Origin: Eledone cirrhosa | Lineage: Eukaryota | Direction: 5' to 3' | NCBI GenBank assembly: GCA_964016885.1 | Contig: OZ024740.1 | Span: 352,470,001 to 352,534,000, forward strand | Length of the DNA stretch: 64,000 bases | In this document: positions 49,541-63,600 of the stretch, piece after piece | Layout of the letters: each line of letters begins with the position of its first letter | Numbering within the stretch: position 1 is the stretch's first letter | Notes under the pieces: generated by a model | The model's input: the letters and a program-made list of their open reading frames with translations, nothing else | What the model was told of the DNA's origin: nothing | The model's database searches: none | Translations under genes and position numbers: made by a program

Positions 49541-49580
49541 TACATATATATATATACATACATATATATATATACATACA

Positions 49581-49612
<32 letters not shown>

Positions 49613-49725
49613 CATATATATATATACATACATATATATATATACATACATATATATATATACATACATATATATATATATACATATATATATACATATA
49701 TATATACTAATACATATATATATAC

Positions 49726-49772
<47 letters not shown>

Positions 49773-50054
49773 CATATATATATACATATATATATATATA
49801 CATATATATATATACATACATATATATATACATACATATATATATATACATACATATATATATATACATACATATATATATATACATACATATGTATATA
49901 TACATACATATATATATACATACATATATATATATACATACATATATATATACATACATATATATATACATACATATATATATATACATACATATATATA
50001 TACATTCATATATATATATACATATATATATATATACATATATACATATACATA

Positions 50055-50109
<55 letters not shown>

Positions 50110-50226
50110 ACATACATATACATACATATATATATACATACATATATATATACATACATATATATATACATACATACATATATATATACATACATATATA
50201 TATACATACATACATATATATATACA

Positions 50227-50260
<34 letters not shown>

Positions 50261-50733
50261 CATACATATATATATATATACATACATATATACATACATA
50301 TATACATACATATATATATACATACATATATATATACATACATATATATATACATACATATATATATACATACATATATATATACATACATACATATATA
50401 CATACATATATATATACATACATATATATATACATACATATATATATACATACATATATACATACATATATATATACATACATATATATATACATACATA
50501 TATATATATATACATACATATATATATATATACATACATATATATATATACATACATATATATATACATACATATATATATATACATACATATATATATA
50601 TACATACATATATATATATACATACATATATATATATACATACATATATATATATACATACATATATATATATACATACATATATATATATACATACATA
50701 TATATATATACATACATATATATATATACATAC

Positions 50734-50766
<33 letters not shown>

Positions 50767-51098
50767 CATACATATATATATACATACATATATATATACA
50801 TACATATATATATACATACATATATATATACAAACATATATATATACATACATATATATATATACATACATATATATATACATACATATATATATATACA
50901 TACATATATATATATACATACATATATATATACATACATATATATATATACATACATATATATATATACATATATATATATACATACATATATATATATA
51001 CATACATATATATATATACATACATACATACATACATATATACATACATATATATACATACATACATATATATATACATACATATATATATACATATA

Positions 51099-51169
<71 letters not shown>

Positions 51170-51741
51170 ATATACACATACATATATATATATACACATA
51201 CATATATATATATATACATATATATATTTACATATATATATATACATACATATATATATATATACATACATATATATATATATACATACATATATATATA
51301 TATATACATACATATATATATATATACATACATATATATATATACATACATATACATACATATATATACATACATATACATACATATACATACATACATA
51401 TACATACATATATATACATATATACATACATATATATACATATATACATACATATATATACATATATACATACATATACATATATATATACATATATATA
51501 TATACATATATATATATACATATACATATATACATATACATATATACATATATATACATATACATATATACATATACATATATACATATATACATATACA
51601 TATATACATATATACATATACATATATACATATACATATATACATATACATATATACATATACATATATACATATATACATATACATATATACATATATA
51701 TATATACATATACATATATATATATACATATATATATATAC

Positions 51742-51781
<40 letters not shown>

Positions 51782-51934
51782 ACATATATATATATACATA
51801 TATATATTATACATATATACATATATATATATACATATATATACATATACATATATATACATATATATACATACATATATATATATACATATATATATAT
51901 ACATATATAAATATATATATATACATATATATAC

Positions 51935-51965
<31 letters not shown>

Positions 51966-52014
51966 CATATATATATACATATATATATATACATATATAC
52001 ATATATACATATAC

Positions 52015-52059
<45 letters not shown>

Positions 52060-52318
52060 CATATATATATACATATATATATATACATATATACATATAT
52101 ATATACATATATATATACACATATATATATACACATATATATATATACACATATATATATACATATATATATACATATATATATATACATATATATATAC
52201 ATATATATATACATATATATATATACATATATATATACATATATATATATACATATATATACATATATATATATACATATATATATATACATATATATAT
52301 ATACATATATATATATAC

Positions 52319-52363
<45 letters not shown>

Positions 52364-52542
52364 CATATATATACATATATATATATATACATACATATAC
52401 ATATATATACATACATATATATATATACATATATATATATACATACATATATATATACATACATATACATATATATACATACATATATATATATACATAC
52501 ATATATATATACATATATATATATACATACATATATATATAC

Positions 52543-52573
<31 letters not shown>

Positions 52574-52773
52574 CATACATATATATATATACATACATAT
52601 ATATATACATACATATATACATACATACATATATACATACATACATATATACATACATATATACATACATACATATATACATACATACATATATACATAC
52701 ATACATACATACATACATACATACATACATACATACATACATACATACATACATACATACATACATACATACA

Positions 52774-52807
<34 letters not shown>

Positions 52808-52921
52808 CATACATATATATATACATACATATATACATACATACATATATACATACATACATATATACATACATACATATATACATACATACATATATAC
52901 ATACATACATATATACATACA

Positions 52922-52955
<34 letters not shown>

Positions 52956-53451
52956 CATACATATATACATACATACATACATATATACATACATACATAT
53001 ATAAATACATACATATATACATACATATATACATACATATATATATATACATACATATATATATATATATACATACATACATACATATACATACATACAT
53101 ACATACATATACATACATACATACATATACATACATATATATATATACATACATATACATACATATACATACATACATACATACATATACATACATACAT
53201 ACATACATACATACACATACATACATATATACACATACATACATATATACATGCATATATATATATACATACATATATATATACATGCATATATATATAT
53301 ACATACATATATATATACATGCATATATATATATACATACATATATACATACATATATATATACATGCATATATATATATACATACATATATACATACAT
53401 ATACATACATACATATATATATATACATACATATATATATATACATACATA

Positions 53452-53483
<32 letters not shown>

Positions 53484-53636
53484 CATATATATATATACAT
53501 ACATATATATATATACATACATATATATATATACATACATATATATATATACATACATATATATATATACATACATATATATATATATACATACATATAT
53601 ATATATACATATATATATATATACATATATATATAC

Positions 53637-53683
<47 letters not shown>

Positions 53684-53965
53684 CATATATATATACATAT
53701 ATATATATATACATATATATATATACATACATATATATATACATACATATATATATATACATACATATATATATATACATACATATATATATATACATAC
53801 ATATGTATATATACATACATATATATATACATACATATATATATATACATACATATATATATACATACATATATATATACATACATATATATATATACAT
53901 ACATATATATATACATACATATATATATATACATATATATATATATACATATATACATATACATA

Positions 53966-54020
<55 letters not shown>

Positions 54021-54197
54021 ACATACATATACATACATATATATATACATACATATATATATACATGCATATATATATATACATACATATATACATACAT
54101 ATATATATACATGCATATATATATATACATACATATATACATACATATACATACATACATATATATATATACATACATATATATATATACATACATA

Positions 54198-54229
<32 letters not shown>

Positions 54230-54364
54230 CATATATATATATACATACATATATATATATACATACATATATATATATACATACATATATATATATACAT
54301 ACATATATATATATATACATACATATATATATATACATATATATATATATACATATATATATAC

Positions 54365-54411
<47 letters not shown>

Positions 54412-54693
54412 CATATATATATACATATATATATATATACATATATATATATACATACATATATATATACATACATATATATATATACATACATATATAT
54501 ATATACATACATATATATATATACATACATATGTATATATACATACATATATATATACATACATATATATATATACATACATATATATATACATACATAT
54601 ATATATACATACATATATATATATACATACATATATATATACATACATATATATATATACATATATATATATATACATATATACATATACATA

Positions 54694-54748
<55 letters not shown>

Positions 54749-54865
54749 ACATACATATACATACATATATATATACATACATATATATATACATACATAT
54801 ATATATACATACATACATATATATATACATACATATATATATACATACATACATACATATATACA

Positions 54866-54899
<34 letters not shown>

Positions 54900-55337
54900 C
54901 ATACATATATATATATATACATACATATATACATACATATATACATACATATATATATACATACATATATATATACATACATATATATATACATACATAT
55001 ATATATACATACATATATATATACATACATACATATATACATACATATATATATACATACATATATATATACATACATATATATATACATACATATATAC
55101 ATACATATATATATACATACATATATATATACATACATATATATATATATACATACATATATATATATACATACATATATATATACATACATATATATAT
55201 ATACATACATATATATATATACATACATATATATATATACATACATATATATATATACATACATATATATATATACATACATATATATATATACATACAT
55301 ATATATATATACATACATATATATATATACATACATA

Positions 55338-55369
<32 letters not shown>

Positions 55370-55527
55370 CACATATATATATATATACATACACATATAT
55401 ATATATACATACATATATATATACATACATATATATATATACATACATATATATATATACATACATATATATATATACATACATATATATATATATACAT
55501 ACATATATATATATATACATACATATA

Positions 55528-55568
<41 letters not shown>

Positions 55569-55613
55569 ATACATACATATATATATATACATACATATAT
55601 ATACATATACATA

Positions 55614-55654
<41 letters not shown>

Positions 55655-55696
55655 ACATACATACATATATATATACATATATATATATACATACAT
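49541..55696. repeat. Giant compound (TA)n/(TACA)n microsatellite, at least 6.1 kb
   Basis: Almost purely ta/ca dinucleotides, with block-wise changes in motif mix. Confidence 0.98.
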
Positions 55697-55800: not shown

Positions 55801-56533
55801 TGTCTTGGTATTTTAACGATAGTTATAGCTCTGATTTATCTAAATTATTGAGCCCTCTGCCACTCATGTCGAATTTTGTTTATCGTGAACTCGTGCACCG
55901 ATTTTTCGATACTCGATTATTCTACTATATTTAGCTCTAGACTTAGCTATTGACCAGTTAATTTTATTGTTCATTTTTTGTCGATCCTATTAAATGATGA
56001 ATAGCTCCTGTTTATTTTAACATGTCTATTGAGCACTCTTATTCGATATGTGATTTTCCACATTCCCGAATATTTTTCGCGGATATAGAGGTTATCTCCC
56101 TTGCTGGATTCCATGTGCGTTTTCAGCTAGGGTTGGCTTTTTTATTCGTTTGGACAAAGCTCGTTGATAAAGTATTTCCTGTCCGCCGCTCTCTAGAAGT
56201 CTTATATATTTTTATGTGTGCTGATAGTGGGCGGTTTAAGGATTTACAGAAACCCAAGAAGCTAGTTTTACCATCTTTCTAGTGGGTCCGGGTAAGCTTT
56301 TTACATTCATATGATTTATTGATTTATTGATATTTTATCTGAGTGACCCGAATCTTCCTGATCGTAATTTTTCGGTCGTATGGTTGATTTTAGACATAAT
56401 CTATGTGTGTTGGTATTTTAACGATAGTTATAGCTCTGATTTATCTGAATTATTGAGCCCTCTGCCACTCATGTCGAATTTTGTTTATCGTGAACTCGTG
56501 CGCCGATTTTTCGATACTCGATTATTCTACTAT
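55801..56533. repeat. Unclassified partial-tandem element: ~128-bp direct repeats, 605-bp period
   Basis: ggtattttaacgatag...gattattctactatat occurs at 55807 and 56412 with only a few substitutions. It is flanked by TA microsatellite. Confidence 0.8.
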
Positions 56534-56792
56534 ATATATATACATATATACACACACATATATATTAATAACAATAATAATAATAACAACAACAACAATA
56601 ATAATAACGACAACAACAATAATAATATACATATATATCTACACACACACACACACACGATAGCAACTAACAGCGCTGCGATCGAATGTGGCTTTTTAGC
56701 CCAGCCAATGATCTAAAATGTCTTGCACATACATACATACATATATATATATACATACATATATAATTATATACATACATACACATACATAT

Positions 56793-56823
<31 letters not shown>

Positions 56824-56859
56824 CATACATATATACATACATACATACATATATATTAG

Positions 56860-58253
56860 AGTAAACATTGATGCAATTCAATTCAAGCACTCAACGTACT
56901 TTTTCCACATAGGAGTGACGGAGTAAATATCGAATAAGGAAAAGCGAAGTAGTTTCAGATGTTCAAGTCCTTTAATAATAATGCTGTGATATATATTTCA
57001 GTGACGACACTGGCCACACTGTTCTGTGTGCGAGTGTCGTGTCATCATCAGACAGCTTGTTACATAATAAGGTTATGTTTCCGAGGCAATCCAAATTGGA
57101 TCGACAAGGGAACGGATGAATTGCGTGTTCTTGGGTTTTTCATCCGCTCCCTTGTGAGCACCAATTCACCCCCACCGGCCTGCGCAAGCACATGTCCGAA
57201 GGAAGTTGACCATTCGCCACCGCAGACTTCAACGAAATTTGCTTAGTCAGTTCACCCTGTCATCCAAAACAATGGCCCACCAATGCCTGTACCATATTTT
57301 ACTGCTACCCATCACGGCTGTGGCAGTCAGTCGAGAGCCAGAGGGGATGGGAGAGTGTTAGTTTTTACAGGTCATAATACTACCCCTCACTAAGCGTTGA
57401 CGGTACGACTAACCATCACCTTATTAGGGAAAATAAACTTATTCTAGGTATCATGGTTTTACGTTGGAAGTTAAGAGTGAGAGTTGGAAATAAAAATTAA
57501 AATCCTAAATCAAATATCAGAAATTATAAATTAAACAATTAAGAAATTAACAATTAGAAATTAAAGAATTAAAAAAAGAATTTAAAAAAATTCTCTTCAG
57601 GTGATAATTCGGATTGAGGTGAGTAAATAATATAGAGAGAGGTGTTTAAGTAATATGTTCTGAGAGGGATTCTAGTGTCACAGTTACTCTATCCACATTG
57701 AACGACGGTGTCGTACATTATAACTACAGGGCTCCAGGCATTAGTGAATCTGGTACACAGTCCTAATTTCCATCACATGGAACAAAATCAAAGAAAAACA
57801 GACATAAAGTACACAAAAGAAAAGAACAGAACCAACAGTGAATAAATGCAAAAACACAGAGTACATATATGATCCATATGATTGTCCATCTGTCCATGTA
57901 TAGATTGAATTGAGGGGGCCTCTGTTCAAGTGCGATTTGGTGCAGGAAAATAGGGGTTTATCCTATTATTTGTTTCCGCGTATTTATCCTGCCGAAAGTT
58001 ATTATGTCCGTCCAGTGTAAGGGGTTTCCATCCCCATGGTAGAGGGAATTTCCGGGGTAGCTTATGGTTGGTTCCTCTCTTCTCCACCATATCGGTTACA
58101 TCGTAAAGCGCTCAACTATTGGAGCTAAATTATTAGGGTAAACATTGATGCAGTTCAATTCAAGCACTCAACGTACTTTTTCCACATCGGAGTGACGGAG
58201 TAAATATCGAATAAGGAAAAGCGAAGTAGTTTCAGATGCTCAAGTCCTTTAAT
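56860..58253 (-). mobile_element. Hammerhead-bearing non-coding element, left copy (1277-bp unit plus ~115-bp terminal direct repeat)
   Basis: The block gtaaacattgatgc...gtcctttaat occurs at 56861 and 58138. This copy is the reverse complement of 58261-59912. Confidence 0.75.
56983..57056 (-). ncRNA. Type I hammerhead ribozyme-like motif (left copy)
   Basis: Exact reverse complement of the motif at 59784-59857. Confidence 0.6.
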
Positions 58254-58374
58254 CAAATCCTATTATTAAAGGACTTGAACATCTGAAACTACTTCGCTTT
58301 TCCTTATTCAATATTTACTCCGTCACTCCTATGTGGAAAAAGTACGTTGAGTGCTTGAATTGAACTGCATCAAT

Positions 58375-58720
58375 CATCATCATCATCATCATCATTTCAT
58401 TTTACGTCCGCTTTTTCCCTGCTTGCAAGGGTGGGACGGGAATGATGCTGGCTTGATTTCTACAGCTGGATGCCCTTCCTAACACCAACCTCATTTACAG
58501 TGAGTGCTGGGTGCTTTTTTGCCGTGGCACCTCCACGACCACTTTGCAGTGGAATGATAGGGACCGCAATCCTATCATCTCATTTCTACAGCTGAGTAAA
58601 CTGGAGCAATGTGAAATAAAGTGTCTTGCTCAAGGAAACAACACATCACCCGGTCTGAGAATTGAACTCACAACCTTTCGATTGCAAGGCCAATGCTCTA
58701 ACCACTAAGCCATGTGCCTC
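58375..58720 (-). mobile_element. tRNA-derived SINE with RTE-derived 3' tail
   Basis: On -, the head has A box tggcttagtggt and B box gagttcaattc. The tail cccttgcaagcagggaaaaagcggacgtaaaatga(tga)n matches the RTE end at 7058-7098. The insert is flanked by caat/caat. Confidence 0.85.
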
Positions 58721-59783
58721 CAATGTTTACCCTAATAATTTAGCTCCAATAGTTGAGCGCTTTACGATGTAACCGATATGGTGGAGAAGAGAGGAACCAA
58801 CCATAAGCTACCCCGGAAATTCCCTCTACCATGGGGATGGAAACCCCTTACACTGGACGGACATAATAATAACTTTCGGCAGGATAAATACGCGGAAACA
58901 AATAATAGGATAAACCCCTATTTTCCTGCACCAAATCTATACATGGACAGATGGACAATCATATGGATCATATATGTACTCTGTGTTTTTGCATTTATTC
59001 ACTGTTGGTTCTGTTCTTTTCTTTTGTGTACTTTATGTCTGTTTTTCTTTGATTTTGTTCCATGTGATGGAAATTAGGACTGTGTAGCAGATTCACTAAT
59101 GCCTGGAGCCCTGTAGTTATAATGTACGACACCGTCGTTCAATGTGGATAGAGTAACTGTGACACTAGAATCCCTCTCAGAACATATTACTTAAACACCT
59201 CTCTCTATATTATTTACTCACCTCAATCCGAATTATCACCTGAAGAGAATTTTTTTTAATTCTTTTTTTAATTCTTTAATTTCTAATTGTTAATTTCTTA
59301 ATTGTTTAATTTATAATTTCTGATATTTGATTTAGGATTTTAATTTTTATTTCCAACTCTCACTCTTAACTTCCAACGTAAAACCATGATACCTAGAATA
59401 AGTTTATTTTCCCTAATAAGGTGATGGTTAGTCGTACCGTCAACGCTTAGTGAGGGGTAGTATTATGACCTGTAAAAACTAACACTCTCCCATCCCCTCT
59501 GGCTCTCGACTGACTGCCACAGCCGTGATGGGTAGCAGTAAAATATGGTACAGGCATTGGTGGGCCATTGTTTTGGATGACAGGGTGAACTGACTAAGCA
59601 AATTTCGTTGAAGTCTGCGGTGGCGAATGGTCAACTTCCTTCGGACATGTGCTTGCGCAGGCCGGTGGGGGTGAATTGGTGCTCACAAGGGAGCGGATGA
59701 AAAATCCAAGAACACGCAATTCATCCGTTCCCTTGTCGATCCAATTTGGATTGCCTCGGAAACATAACCTTATTATGTAACAA

Positions 59784-59857
59784 GCTGTCTGATGATGACA
59801 CGACACTCGCACACAGAACAGTGTGGCCAGTGTCGTCACTGAAATATATATCACAGC
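59784..59857 (+). ncRNA. Type I hammerhead ribozyme-like motif (right copy)
   Basis: Stem I GCTGT/ACAGC; core CTGATGA at 59789-59795; stem II TGAC(AC)GACACT/AGTGTCGTCA plus CACAC/GTGTG; GAAA at 59841-59844; palindromic stem III (A)TATATA(T); cleavage triplet ATC. Two extra nt (CT) before GAAA deviate from consensus. Confidence 0.6.
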
Positions 59858-59909
59858 ATTATTATTAAAGGACTTGAACATCTGAAACTACTTCGCTTTT
59901 CCTTATTCG

Positions 59910-59911
<2 letters not shown>

Positions 59912-59940
<29 letters not shown>

Positions 59941-59990
59941 CATACATACATACATATACATACATATACATACATACATACATACATATA

Positions 59991-60022
<32 letters not shown>

Positions 60023-60257
60023 CATACATATATATACATACATACATATATACATACATACATATATACATACATATATACATACATACATACATACACA
60101 CACATACATACACACACATACATACATACATATACATACATACATATACATACATACATACATATATATATACATACATACATATATATATACATACATA
60201 CATATATATATACATACATACATATATATATATACATACATACATACATATACATAC

Positions 60258-60291
<34 letters not shown>

Positions 60292-60300
60292 ACATACATA

Positions 60301-60332
<32 letters not shown>

Positions 60333-60394
60333 CATATATATATACATACATACATATATATATACATACATACATATATATATATATACATACA

Positions 60395-60426
<32 letters not shown>

Positions 60427-60511
60427 CATACATACATACATATATACATATATATATATACATACATACATACAGATACATACATATATATATACATACA
60501 TACATATATAT

Positions 60512-60544
<33 letters not shown>

Positions 60545-60625
60545 TACATACATATATATATACATACATACATATATATATACATACATATATATATACA
60601 TACATACATACATATATATATATAC
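59912..60625. repeat. (TACA)/(TA) microsatellite
   Basis: Direct inspection. The same strand motif lies at 56725-56856 on the other side of the palindrome. Confidence 0.97.
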
Positions 60626-63600
60626 ATCATCATCATCATCATCATCAGGTTTAGCGTCCGTGTTCCACGCTTGCATGGGTTTGGACGGGGGTTTTCCCAC
60701 TTGAGGCAAGAGTGGTTGTCTTGCTCGCATAGGACTGTCTGGCGGGTTTTCTACAGTTGGATGCCCTTCCTAACACCAACCACATTTACAGTGTGGGGCT
60801 GGGAGGTTTTTACCGTGTTGCCTACACGGCCACATTTACAGCGTGGACTGTGTGTTTTTTTGTCGTGACACCTACACGATCTCATTTGTTTCAGCCTGGA
60901 TGTTGTGGCACCAACATAACTTTACATTGAAAGGGGCGGTGTGGGTGGGGTGGAGGGACGGGGGGGGGGGGGGTTTGATAGAGATGCCTACTGACTGTAG
61001 TAGGTTTTTACTTTGTATTTAGGTAAGGCGGGTCTTCTCCATTACTGAGTACCGCCAAAGGTCTCGGTCCAGTGACATTGTCTTGGAGAGGTGTAAGCGT
61101 GTGAGGTCGGAATTTATCAGCTCGTCCCATGTTTTTCTGGGTCTGCCTACTCCGTGGCCACCGTCTATCTTTATTGCCCTGCACTTTGTTATACAGCTGT
61201 CGTCTTTCATGCGCATCACGTGACCGTACCAACGTAGCCTTCTCTCGAGTAAACAAAATCTGATCCCTCTTATTTCTAATTTTTTCCTTAGTTCGTTTAT
61301 GCTTTGCCGTTCACGTATATTACTATTGCACATCCAGCGGAGCATGCAAGCTTCGTTCCTCTCTAGTCTGCGTATATCCTCTGCACACAATGCCCAGGTC
61401 TCACTGCCATGCAACATTGCTGTTCGTATGCAGGCATCGTATAACCTGCCTTTCATTTTTAGGGAGAACCCTCTAGCGGCTAATAGTGGTATAAGCTCTC
61501 TGAACTTTTTCCATCCAGTTCTGACTCTAGCTACTGTACTTTAAGAGCACCCTCCCCCACTGCTGATTTTGTCACCCAGGTAACGGAAGCTGTCCACTAT
61601 TTCTATAGAACCCTCTGCGCAGTTGAAGGAGCTAGTATTTTGTGGGCACTTGCTGCTACTTATTGCACCAGAGCACCGGCCACATGTAAAATCTATGTTC
61701 TTAGTTAGCTTACCTGTGATCCCACTACATCTTTTATGCACCCATACTTTGCATTTGGGACATAAAATGGAGTTTCTACCTACGCCTTTCCTACACACTG
61801 AGCATGGCCATTTCCCAGATGGGACTGCCGCCTTATTTTCTTTCCTACAAACTAGAACTTTAGTCTTAGCCAGGTTAATTTTAAGGCCTTTTGATTCTAG
61901 GCCGTGCTTCCATGTTTGGAATTTCTTCTCTAGTTCGGTCATTGATTCAGCTATGAGCGTTAGATCATCTGCGTATAGGAGTTCCCATGGGCAGCCGGTC
62001 TTGAACTCCTCTGTTATAGCCTGAAGGGCAATAATAAATAGTAGGGGGCTAAGAACAGAGCCCTGATGGACACCAACTTTTACGCTAAACTCTTCACTAT
62101 ATTCGTTGTTAATTCTAACCTTACTGACTGTTTCTTTATACATGGCTTGTATAGCTCTCACAAGCCATTCGTCAACACCTAGTTTTCTAAGAGACCACCA
62201 GATAATGGAACGGGGGACTCTGTCGAAGGCTTTCTCCAAGTCGACGAAAGCTAAGTATAGGGGTTTACTTTTAGCTAGGTACTTCTCCTGTAGTTGTCGT
62301 ACAATGAAAAGAGCGTCTGTGGTACTTTTGCCTGACACAAATCCGAACTGCATTTCATCTAGATCAATTCTCTCTCTGATTAGTTGCGCTATTACTTTTT
62401 CCGTGACCTTCATGACCTGGTCGATTAATTTAATGCCTCTATAGTTACTCCTATCTAGGGCATCTCCTTTTCCCTTATAGCAGTTAACGATGATGCTGCT
62501 ACGCCAGTCCTTCGGAACAACCCCATTCTGTACGACTTGGTTAACTATCCGGGTGACCATGGTGTGTCCACCGAACCAGATGCCTTCAGCATCTCAGCAA
62601 CTATTTCCGAAGGACCAGCCGCCTTACCCGTCTTCATATCTTTGATTGCCTTGCTTATTGTACTACCCTGGACTAACACTGCTGGTCCCTCTATTGGGTT
62701 GATGCGGGGGAGACTGTCTTTCTCCCATTTGTTCTCCTCATTTAGAAGCCTTTCGTAGTGACACTTCCAAGCTACCTTCTTATCAGCGTCGGTGATGGCA
62801 AGTATGCCATCATCGTTAAGTACACACTTCTCCCCGACAATATCATGGTTTTTCTTGACACATTGCCTGGCAATCCTGTACACCTCACGTTGTAGAACAT
62901 GCTTGAACTTTCTTTCCTCTGCTTCCCTTCTTGCGAAGTACACTTGTCTCCTAGCTTCCCTCCTGGCCACCTGATAGTCTTCTCTACTTCCCCCATCCCG
63001 CCATGCTTTCCAAGCCTGCTTTTTGGCCTTAATTGACTCCTCCACCTTACTGTTCCACCACCATGTTACTCTCCTCCTACCTACAAGCCTGCTCCAGCCA
63101 CAGACTTCATCTGCCGCCGTCAGCAGGTTTGCTCTCAGGAATTCCCACTGTTCCTCTATATTATACGACTCTAATTGCTCTTCCTTACTGTCGAAAGCGT
63201 CAAGTAATATGCTTTGAAATTTATTTCTGACTATGGGGTCCTTTAGCTTCCATATTTTTCTCCTGAGGATAGTCCTCTTCCGCTGTCTAGTACGTCTCGT
63301 CCTGACTATGAGGTCGCTAATTATCAGTCTATGTTGGGAGGTGAATTCTTCATGGGGGAGGGATTTAGTGTTAACAACAGACACTCTGTCACGTCTTCTG
63401 GTAAGGATATAATCTACCTGGCTTGTGTGTTCCCCCGATCTATAGGTGATCAAGTGATTGTCTCGTTTTTTGAAGTTAGTGTTACAGATAGTTAAGTTAT
63501 TTGCGTCGCAGAATTCCAGGATTCTGGAGCCTTCCTCATTTCTAGTACGAACCCGTAGCCTCCATGGATTCCGTCATAGCCGTCACAATGTTGTCCAACG

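Follow-up and report, generated by a model that had tools for sequence, protein, structure and literature searches.

A non-coding hammerhead-motif element in Eledone cirrhosa, a likely passenger of Hydra-clade Penelope-like elements

Structure of the locus

The window analysed here is a 64,000-nucleotide stretch of the Eledone cirrhosa genome (assembly GCA_964016885.1, contig OZ024740.1, positions 352,470,001 to 352,534,000), in which two arms of a non-coding repeat unit lie head to head within a microsatellite. Judged from sequence comparison, the pair is most probably one insertion of a family of about 1.3 kb that carries a hammerhead motif and was copied in trans by the reverse transcriptase (RT)/GIY-YIG protein of Penelope-like elements (PLEs) of the Hydra clade. 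The two arms have different 3' ends, one short and one long, and in the RNA a motif of the CTCC..GTTGAG[T/C]GCT type comes after each of them: motif 1, TTTACTCC..GTTGAGTGCT at +61, and motif 2, TTTAGCTCC..GTTGAGCGCT at +136. End positions are counted from the predicted hammerhead cut. The features are as follows.

56727..56853, left flank and target, (ACAT/TA)n microsatellite
56854..58253, minus strand, left arm of 1.1 units; its 5' end is unit +12 and its 3' end the long end
56854..56927, minus strand, the 'tail', about 75 nt by which the long 3' end extends past the short one, in the left arm only and holding motif 1
56886..56927, minus strand, motif 1 (TTTACTCC..GTTGAGTGCT), 3'-repeat copy, unit +61 to +102, starting immediately past the short end
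56983..57056, minus strand, type I hammerhead motif of the left arm, predicted cut between 56988 and 56987
57926..58090, minus strand, open reading frame (ORF) of 54 codons, its ATG near the Hydra ORF start position and right after motif 2
58104..58129, minus strand, motif 2 of the left arm (TTTAGCTCC..GTTGAGCGCTTT), unit +136 to +161, starting immediately past the long end
58163..58204, minus strand, motif 1, 5'-repeat copy of the left arm
58254..58260, 7-nt filler separating both 5' ends
58261..59912, plus strand, right arm; its 5' end is unit +8 and its 3' end the short end (+60)
58314..58355, plus strand, motif 1, 5'-repeat copy of the right arm
58375..58720, minus strand, tRNA-derived short interspersed element (SINE), a later insertion that ends in (GAT)n and has a duplication of 4 bp, CAAT
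58739..58763, plus strand, motif 2 of the right arm
59784..59857, plus strand, type I hammerhead motif of the right arm, predicted cut after 59852
59913..60622, right flank and target, (ATAC/TA)n microsatellite

Alignment bears out the unit period of 1277 bp given in the original prediction, and sequence and alignment together support its inverted, head-to-head arrangement around the spacer at 58254-58260. The location inside a TACA/TA microsatellite is likewise confirmed by the flanks, which are (ACAT)n and (ATAC)n arrays; because the target is such a microsatellite, no target-site duplication can be defined. The partial-tandem terminal repeats, put at about 115 and 50 bp, are present but measure 123 bp in the left arm (58131-58253 vs 56854-56976, 96.7% in the alignment) and 53 bp in the right (58261-58313 vs 59860-59912, 98.1%). 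The left boundary is at 56854 rather than 56860; the long end of this arm lies at +134 past the hammerhead cut site, adjoining the TA/ACAT microsatellite. Absent from the original prediction were a deletion of 31 bp in the right arm and the SINE of 346 bp, in which Rfam scores a tRNA at 58655-58712 with 28.1 bits, slightly below the cut-off of 29.

An inverted pair whose arms are 97% identical could be an assembly fold-back or a DNA transposon with long inverted repeats, resembling a miniature inverted-repeat transposable element, and no contig piece listed from three public runs (one sample, short contigs) spans the locus. The arms differ, however, by the SINE, by two deletions (31 bp in the right arm, 3 bp in the left) and by three substitutions in the aligned body, and they have in common five substitutions and a 2-nt deletion that are absent from the other 22 aligned copies. 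Private variants common to both arms, combined with arm-specific insertions and deletions, indicate a single insertion whose arms then decayed separately, rather than a fold-back. Similar pairs also recur: among the first 100 hammerheads listed, inspected by eye, there were 19 minus-then-plus pairs within 2.1 kb and three cases of neighbours on the same strand one unit apart, while plus-then-minus pairs were absent. Unlike elements with fixed terminal inverted repeats and a fixed length, these copies vary freely in arm length and junction, and many are solo. We regard a fold-back or a transposon of this kind as scarcely credible. The central 115-bp hairpin (58144-58374) has three differences between the arms, as many as the remaining approximately 1160 bp, an excess possibly due to error-prone joining.

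No RT-like ORF had been seen in the unit, and this holds: the longest stop-to-stop frames within the arms are of 97 and 106 aa, Pfam matched none of three unit frames, a six-frame tblastn search of the unit against 48 GIY-YIG loci gave a best E of 0.66, and none of the copies examined codes for RT or endonuclease. The 54-codon ORF is probably not a functional gene, since it has no Pfam match and contains stops in many copies.

The hammerhead motif

In a strict scan of the entire window, both strands included, only two hammerhead motifs appeared, one per arm, each just before the 3' repeat as originally predicted. The motif has a long stem II with a U·U closing pair and a palindromic stem III. 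The loci retrieved contain 58 distinct variants of the motif. In 57 of these stem III reads as the palindrome ATATATAT, the core and stem I are conserved to the same extent, and U·U is the opening pair of stem II, again in 57. Stem II also has two-sided changes, pair 5-41 being A-U in 30 variants and G-C in 22. In a third, older subfamily, 19 of 24 matches have ATATGTAT. A 200-nt segment over the hammerhead and the hairpin upstream of it is structured (z -5.7, 30 shuffles).

Palindromic stem III, cleavage as a dimer and low activity have been described together (Cervera and de la Pena 2014, PMC4209133), and in the same account the G10.1-C11.1 pair is highly conserved. As read from the sequence, the motif of the unit would be a hammerhead of this known dimer type which deviates at the G10.1-C11.1 pair. 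With one hammerhead per strand, monomer release by double cleavage is impossible at the window locus, which is an ordinary insertion and probably an inert dead end.

Closure of stem II by U·U is also seen in several unrelated hammerheads of this genome. Other Neptune-like families (L062, L063, L073, L075, L055) have hammerheads with a U3-A8 core variant, and at L063:5510-6419 there is a 459-bp non-coding partial-tandem repeat whose hammerhead has stem I of the unit.

Copies across the genome

The exact hammerhead pattern has 1,417 matches in the 3.0-Gb genome, against none for a reversed control, and a DNA search with the unit gave 84 matches in the best 40 of 2179 candidates. Identity of 24 long copies to their own majority sequence is 97.1-98.9%. 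There are at least three subfamilies, of which two have 88.5% identity over 1230 ungapped columns and members that match the respective majority sequence at 95-99%, and the third is more distant. The unit length is 1277-1325 bp. In tandem copies the distance from hammerhead to hammerhead is 1275-1364 bp and the intervening sequence has no ORF; an array of four units or more was seen and an array is present in L165. Two or more hammerheads on the same strand, absent at the window locus, are found at some other loci.

It might be supposed that the unit is the long terminal region of an undiscovered coding PLE and that the copies are its truncation products, as most of them are 5'-truncated and examination covered only the best-scoring 40 of the 2179 candidates. 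Against this, full-length copies close on themselves after about 1.3 kb, none of 30 unbiased loci continues into a different shared sequence, and a search with the 54-codon ORF found no open frame longer than 204 aa in the 150 best of 688 candidates. This explanation is largely refuted by the closed tandems, and we consider it very improbable. The analysis supports the original description of the family as non-autonomous, Penelope-type, multi-copy and longer than published animal retrozymes, and the outcomes feared there (a single-copy sequence, a satellite, a DNA transposon, a fold-back) did not materialise. The unit is a real, multi-copy, non-autonomous element of Penelope type.

Two apparent leads to an autonomous partner led elsewhere. 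L050/L061 proved to be a subfamily-2 copy inserted beside a Neptune-like fragment, and the motif at the loose ends yielded only the third non-coding subfamily. One SINE type is found recurrently inside an (ATT)3 stretch 5-26 nt past the hammerhead cut site, with duplications of 5-16 bp (L061, L103, L110, L117, L119, L129, L145). At L154:1540 a subfamily-3 copy is joined, with no TA tract, to sequence leading into a Penelope-type ORF that bears DKT.

Ends and pairs

Copies are truncated at the 5' end and have their 3' ends at (TA)n. These 3' ends fall into two classes: at 107 loci we found 133 ends abutting a microsatellite, of which 66 lie between +41 and +79 and 67 between +127 and +139; as BLAST ends, they extend a few bases into the TA tract. 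One long and one short end were present in all 39 paired rows (37 distinct loci, two listed twice), the arms typically stopping some 60 nt and some 134 nt beyond the hammerhead cut. The arms are head to head in 37/37 paired loci and tail to tail in none, the tail is on a single end in every pair, and the junctions have overlaps or fillers of -17 to +18 nt. Partial tandems, an inverted 5' copy and a tail of 30-40 bp on one end are described for PLEs (Craig 2021, PMC8557442; Arkhipova 2013, PMC3846280). The head-to-head layout is therefore the ordinary structure of a Penelope insertion and the long/short pairs are the known Penelope 'tail' signature, the tail here measuring about 75 nt and not 30-40. 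At several other loci, what look like starts at +6 to +14 are actually SINE duplications.

Terminal motifs shared with Hydra-clade elements

The motif pair was noticed through distant non-coding relatives, which were found with hammerhead-stem and motif-1 patterns. A genome search with the motif-2 pattern gave 60 matches, against none in the control, and coding elements were among them. Subfamilies with an overall identity of 88% have retained the two motifs, as have non-coding families at a greater distance.

Since selection by motif 2 is circular, 18 intact copies were chosen by protein similarity alone, as those with an open frame of at least 740 aa out of 108 matches; none of them matches the pattern used for motif-2 selection. 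Their leaders contain motif 1 in 11 cases and motif 2 in 15. The leader aligned to unit +1 to +175 scores 77.2, where the maximum in 1000 shuffles was 53.1, and the motif-1 part alone scores 36.2, reached by one of 1000 shuffles. The proteins have DKT (18/18), RW[K/R] (17/18) and CxCx5C (17/18), the marks of the Hydra clade in section 11 of PMC8557442, and from these protein marks we provisionally assign the candidate partner elements to that clade. A C-terminal domain of GIY-YIG type was seen by eye, with no Pfam match for two pieces of L267; the endonuclease has no CCHH motif in three translations (L267, L283, L294), each having a single cysteine there. The ORF is of 732-745 aa and its start codon follows motif 2. 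The distance from start codon to the next hammerhead is 3.5-4.1 kb, longer than the 'generally <3 kb' given as a Hydra feature.

The insertions of these elements resemble those of the unit. They have a canonical hammerhead, insert into (TA)n and have a tail of about 90 nt; among 19 ends, 11 are at +47-50 and eight at +137-139, each just before a motif, and all four pairs have one long and one short end. For the mobilisation in trans proposed in the original prediction, these elements, with the two terminal motifs of the unit, are a specific candidate. Six copies are 96-98% identical in protein, which indicates that the Hydra helper was recently active. We consider mobilisation in trans by a Hydra-clade protein likely on these comparisons.

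Further non-coding hammerhead families with motif 1, motif 2 or both were also observed (L180-L198, L199-L228, L229-L235, L236, L243, L256, L260, L263), one of which has a canonical G-C closing pair together with the stems I and III of the unit. By their sequence, these families are likely a set of Hydra parasites.

Several observations weigh against a Hydra helper, or against processing of the RNA by the ribozyme. The unit and the Hydra-type elements are similar only in the two motifs and in the palindrome of stem III, and do not align elsewhere. Motif 1 was not found in seven of the 18 leaders and motif 2 in three (leaders without a motif are mostly truncated or inverted, two have variants, and in L300 the start was not located), and motif 1 of the unit lacks the expected hairpin in the minimum-energy structure, as the only one of four motifs to do so. 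For the circular monomer in its entirety, stability is not clearly above that of shuffled sequences (z -1.5, 8 shuffles), and Rfam gave no hammerhead match for the unit at E<=10 but two unrelated weak matches. The 5' ends are scattered, the window being the sole locus among 32 paired loci with both of them near the cut, so that fixing of 5' ends by hammerhead cleavage is unsupported. The comparison of helpers covers part of the Penelope-like families of this genome. Searches for GIY-YIG sequences initially turned up Neptune-like families. Among 50 GIY-YIG loci (30 + 20, of 150 listed) no partner was found by nucleotide or tblastn similarity, and 0/7 tails from these loci beat shuffles when compared with the unit.

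The mover might also have been another family, with a Penelope-type insertion all the same and the Hydra motifs as relics of origin. The foremost candidate is a very young Neptune-like family, in which 69/69 scored matches are at 98-100% protein identity. It also targets (TA)n, has the same long/short pairs (5/5), and has in common with the unit the U·U closing pair that the Hydra hammerheads lack. Since a Neptune-like family has the same layout, architecture alone names no helper. Its leader, however, has no motif or sequence match to the unit and scores at chance level (22.8, with 859 of 1000 shuffles equally good), and the two motifs are kept across subfamilies and distant families, as sites under use would be. 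Co-adapted cis sites, with no cross-mobilisation between the PLE types studied in PMC3846280, also argue against such a mover, which we consider unlikely. This young family (L156-L163) consists of a 4.2-kb unit in many near-identical copies with two long overlapping open frames of 476 and 775 aa stop to stop in place of a single one, a layout for which an intron or a programmed frameshift is possible.

Proposed mechanism and nature of the template

The steps of insertion by a Hydra-clade helper can be sketched by analogy with the Poseidon protein of Anolis, whose binding and priming were studied in vitro (Frangieh 2024, PMC11167929). That protein, a predicted dimer, nicks and extends both strands of AT-rich DNA, and two internal start sites on the RNA bound the tail. 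In the same way a Hydra protein, perhaps as a dimer, would bind the unit RNA at both motifs and nick both strands of the TA tract. Reverse transcription would then begin at two internal points of the RNA, each immediately 5' of a motif, with one start per DNA strand; both complementary DNAs would stop at random points and their far ends would be joined via microhomology or filler. This would leave two arms head to head, only one of them with a tail. We tentatively propose, at somewhat less than even confidence, that the two motifs are the binding sites of a dimeric Hydra RT-endonuclease, each setting one start, that one RNA, which may be a circle, is copied twice simultaneously into opposite strands of the TA tract, and that the motifs form a minimal portable cassette for hammerhead parasites.

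Because motif 2 is situated past the long end, a full unit upstream of both motifs is available only in a tandem transcript or a circular monomer, and as a terminal copy loses motif 2, the source copies must be tandems or circles. An uncut tandem transcript is the template that we mildly favour, and a circle is a serious possibility. In a three-way test over 2070 sites, the odd sites numbered 36 for the upstream repeat, 35 for the terminal repeat and 50 for the inverted copy. This result suits a circle but also a young linear tandem; the test is a weak one.

In a classical retrozyme, self-cleavage of tandem transcripts yields monomers, which circularise and build up, and the template has to be the circle. 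Such a cycle is consistent with copying by a Hydra-clade protein, the sole difference being that an active ribozyme and circles are required. The conserved core, stem I and stem III, the covariation in stem II and the existence of tandems with at least two hammerheads are as expected of a retrozyme, and the upstream repeat is no more divergent than the terminal one, as copying from a circle would give. On the other side, the three-way test leaves young linear tandems possible (L167 leans linear, 10 vs 4), the 5' ends do not cluster at the cut, and the closing pair is non-canonical when compared with the G10.1-C11.1 consensus of PMC4209133. Hammerhead cleavage was dispensable for insertion in PMC11167929, and one of nine tested dimers cleaved in a 2026 preprint (bioRxiv 10.64898/2026.07.22.740005). 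We hold obligatory processing of this kind to be somewhat less likely than not. The unit falls outside the class of classical retrozymes by its size and closing pair, cleavage and circles being only putative, though it may work like one.

Relation to known elements

The unit resembles animal non-LTR (non-long terminal repeat) retrozymes in being non-coding, in its type I hammerhead with palindromic stem III, in its tandems and in the dependence on Penelope-like helpers that has been proposed for them (Cervera and de la Pena 2020, PMC7229834). It differs in length, at 1277-1325 bp vs about 220-400 nt in that account, and also exceeds the 51-972 bp of the retrozymes in the 2026 preprint (Li, Clavereau and Pollet), which used a search period of at most 1000. 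Retrozymes form arrays, whereas the unit is mostly dispersed, 5'-truncated and head to head, with a U·U pair. The preprint argues for the helper link from co-occurrence and from frog terminal repeats, and has no mollusc in its main text.

Partial tandems, an inverted 5' copy, a tail on one end, a hammerhead in the terminal repeat and insertion at (TA)n are common to the unit and to the Hydra clade as described in PMC8557442, and with the Hydra-type elements of this genome it has in common the two motifs and the stem III palindrome. It has no ORF, its tail is longer than the one described for the clade (about 75 nt vs 30-40 bp), and nothing else is alignable. Non-autonomous elements of the Chlamys type, for example MRC1 (PMC8557442), also have pseudo-LTRs, head-to-tail copies and ends similar to those of autonomous families, but they are from green algae and their helpers have N-terminal endonucleases and mostly no hammerheads. 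Poseidon of Anolis is alike in its two starts downstream of the hammerhead, in a binding region that extends 3' of the starts and in its AT-rich target; it differs in being autonomous, and no repeated motif after each start is described in the consulted part of PMC11167929.

Related literature includes a curation guide (PMC8969392) and a ribozyme review (PMC6765202), and the consulted text of an octopus repeat paper (PMC13282606) mentions neither hammerhead nor retrozyme. In the literature, with supplements, Dfam, Repbase and subscription journals outside its scope, our search found no Hydra-dependent non-coding element and no repeated motif after both start sites. The kind of element is thus already known from animal retrozymes and non-autonomous PLEs; what is new is the length, the partner and the paired motif.

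Other features of the window

A second, unrelated non-coding partial-tandem repeat with a 605-bp period lies at 55802-56532 and ends in (TA)n. Its copies are 98-99% identical, with 2685 candidates, and on contig C263 about 13 units form an array; no inverted pairs were evident among 78 matches, and neither a hammerhead nor an Rfam match was found. A TA/TACA microsatellite of 6.1 kb (49544-55693) lies beside an assembly gap, and at 61000-61500 on the minus strand there is a fragment, read by eye, that resembles the RT of what we take to be a long interspersed element.

Significance

How PLEs choose their RNA and how they build tandem and inverted insertions are open problems in the accounts of PMC8557442 and PMC11167929, and the link between retrozymes and helpers has so far been drawn mainly from co-occurrence and the similarity of frog terminal repeats. 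Here a parasite and its likely helper have almost nothing but two short motifs in common, each immediately past one of the two start sites, which narrows the recognition signal to two pieces of about 25-40 nt. Both pieces are open to direct mutation, and the clade has copies that are intact and young. If correct, the dimer model would explain the Penelope tail and the head-to-head pairs at the level of sequence, and the cassette would let non-coding hammerhead parasites hijack the enzyme with more than 1 kb of cargo.

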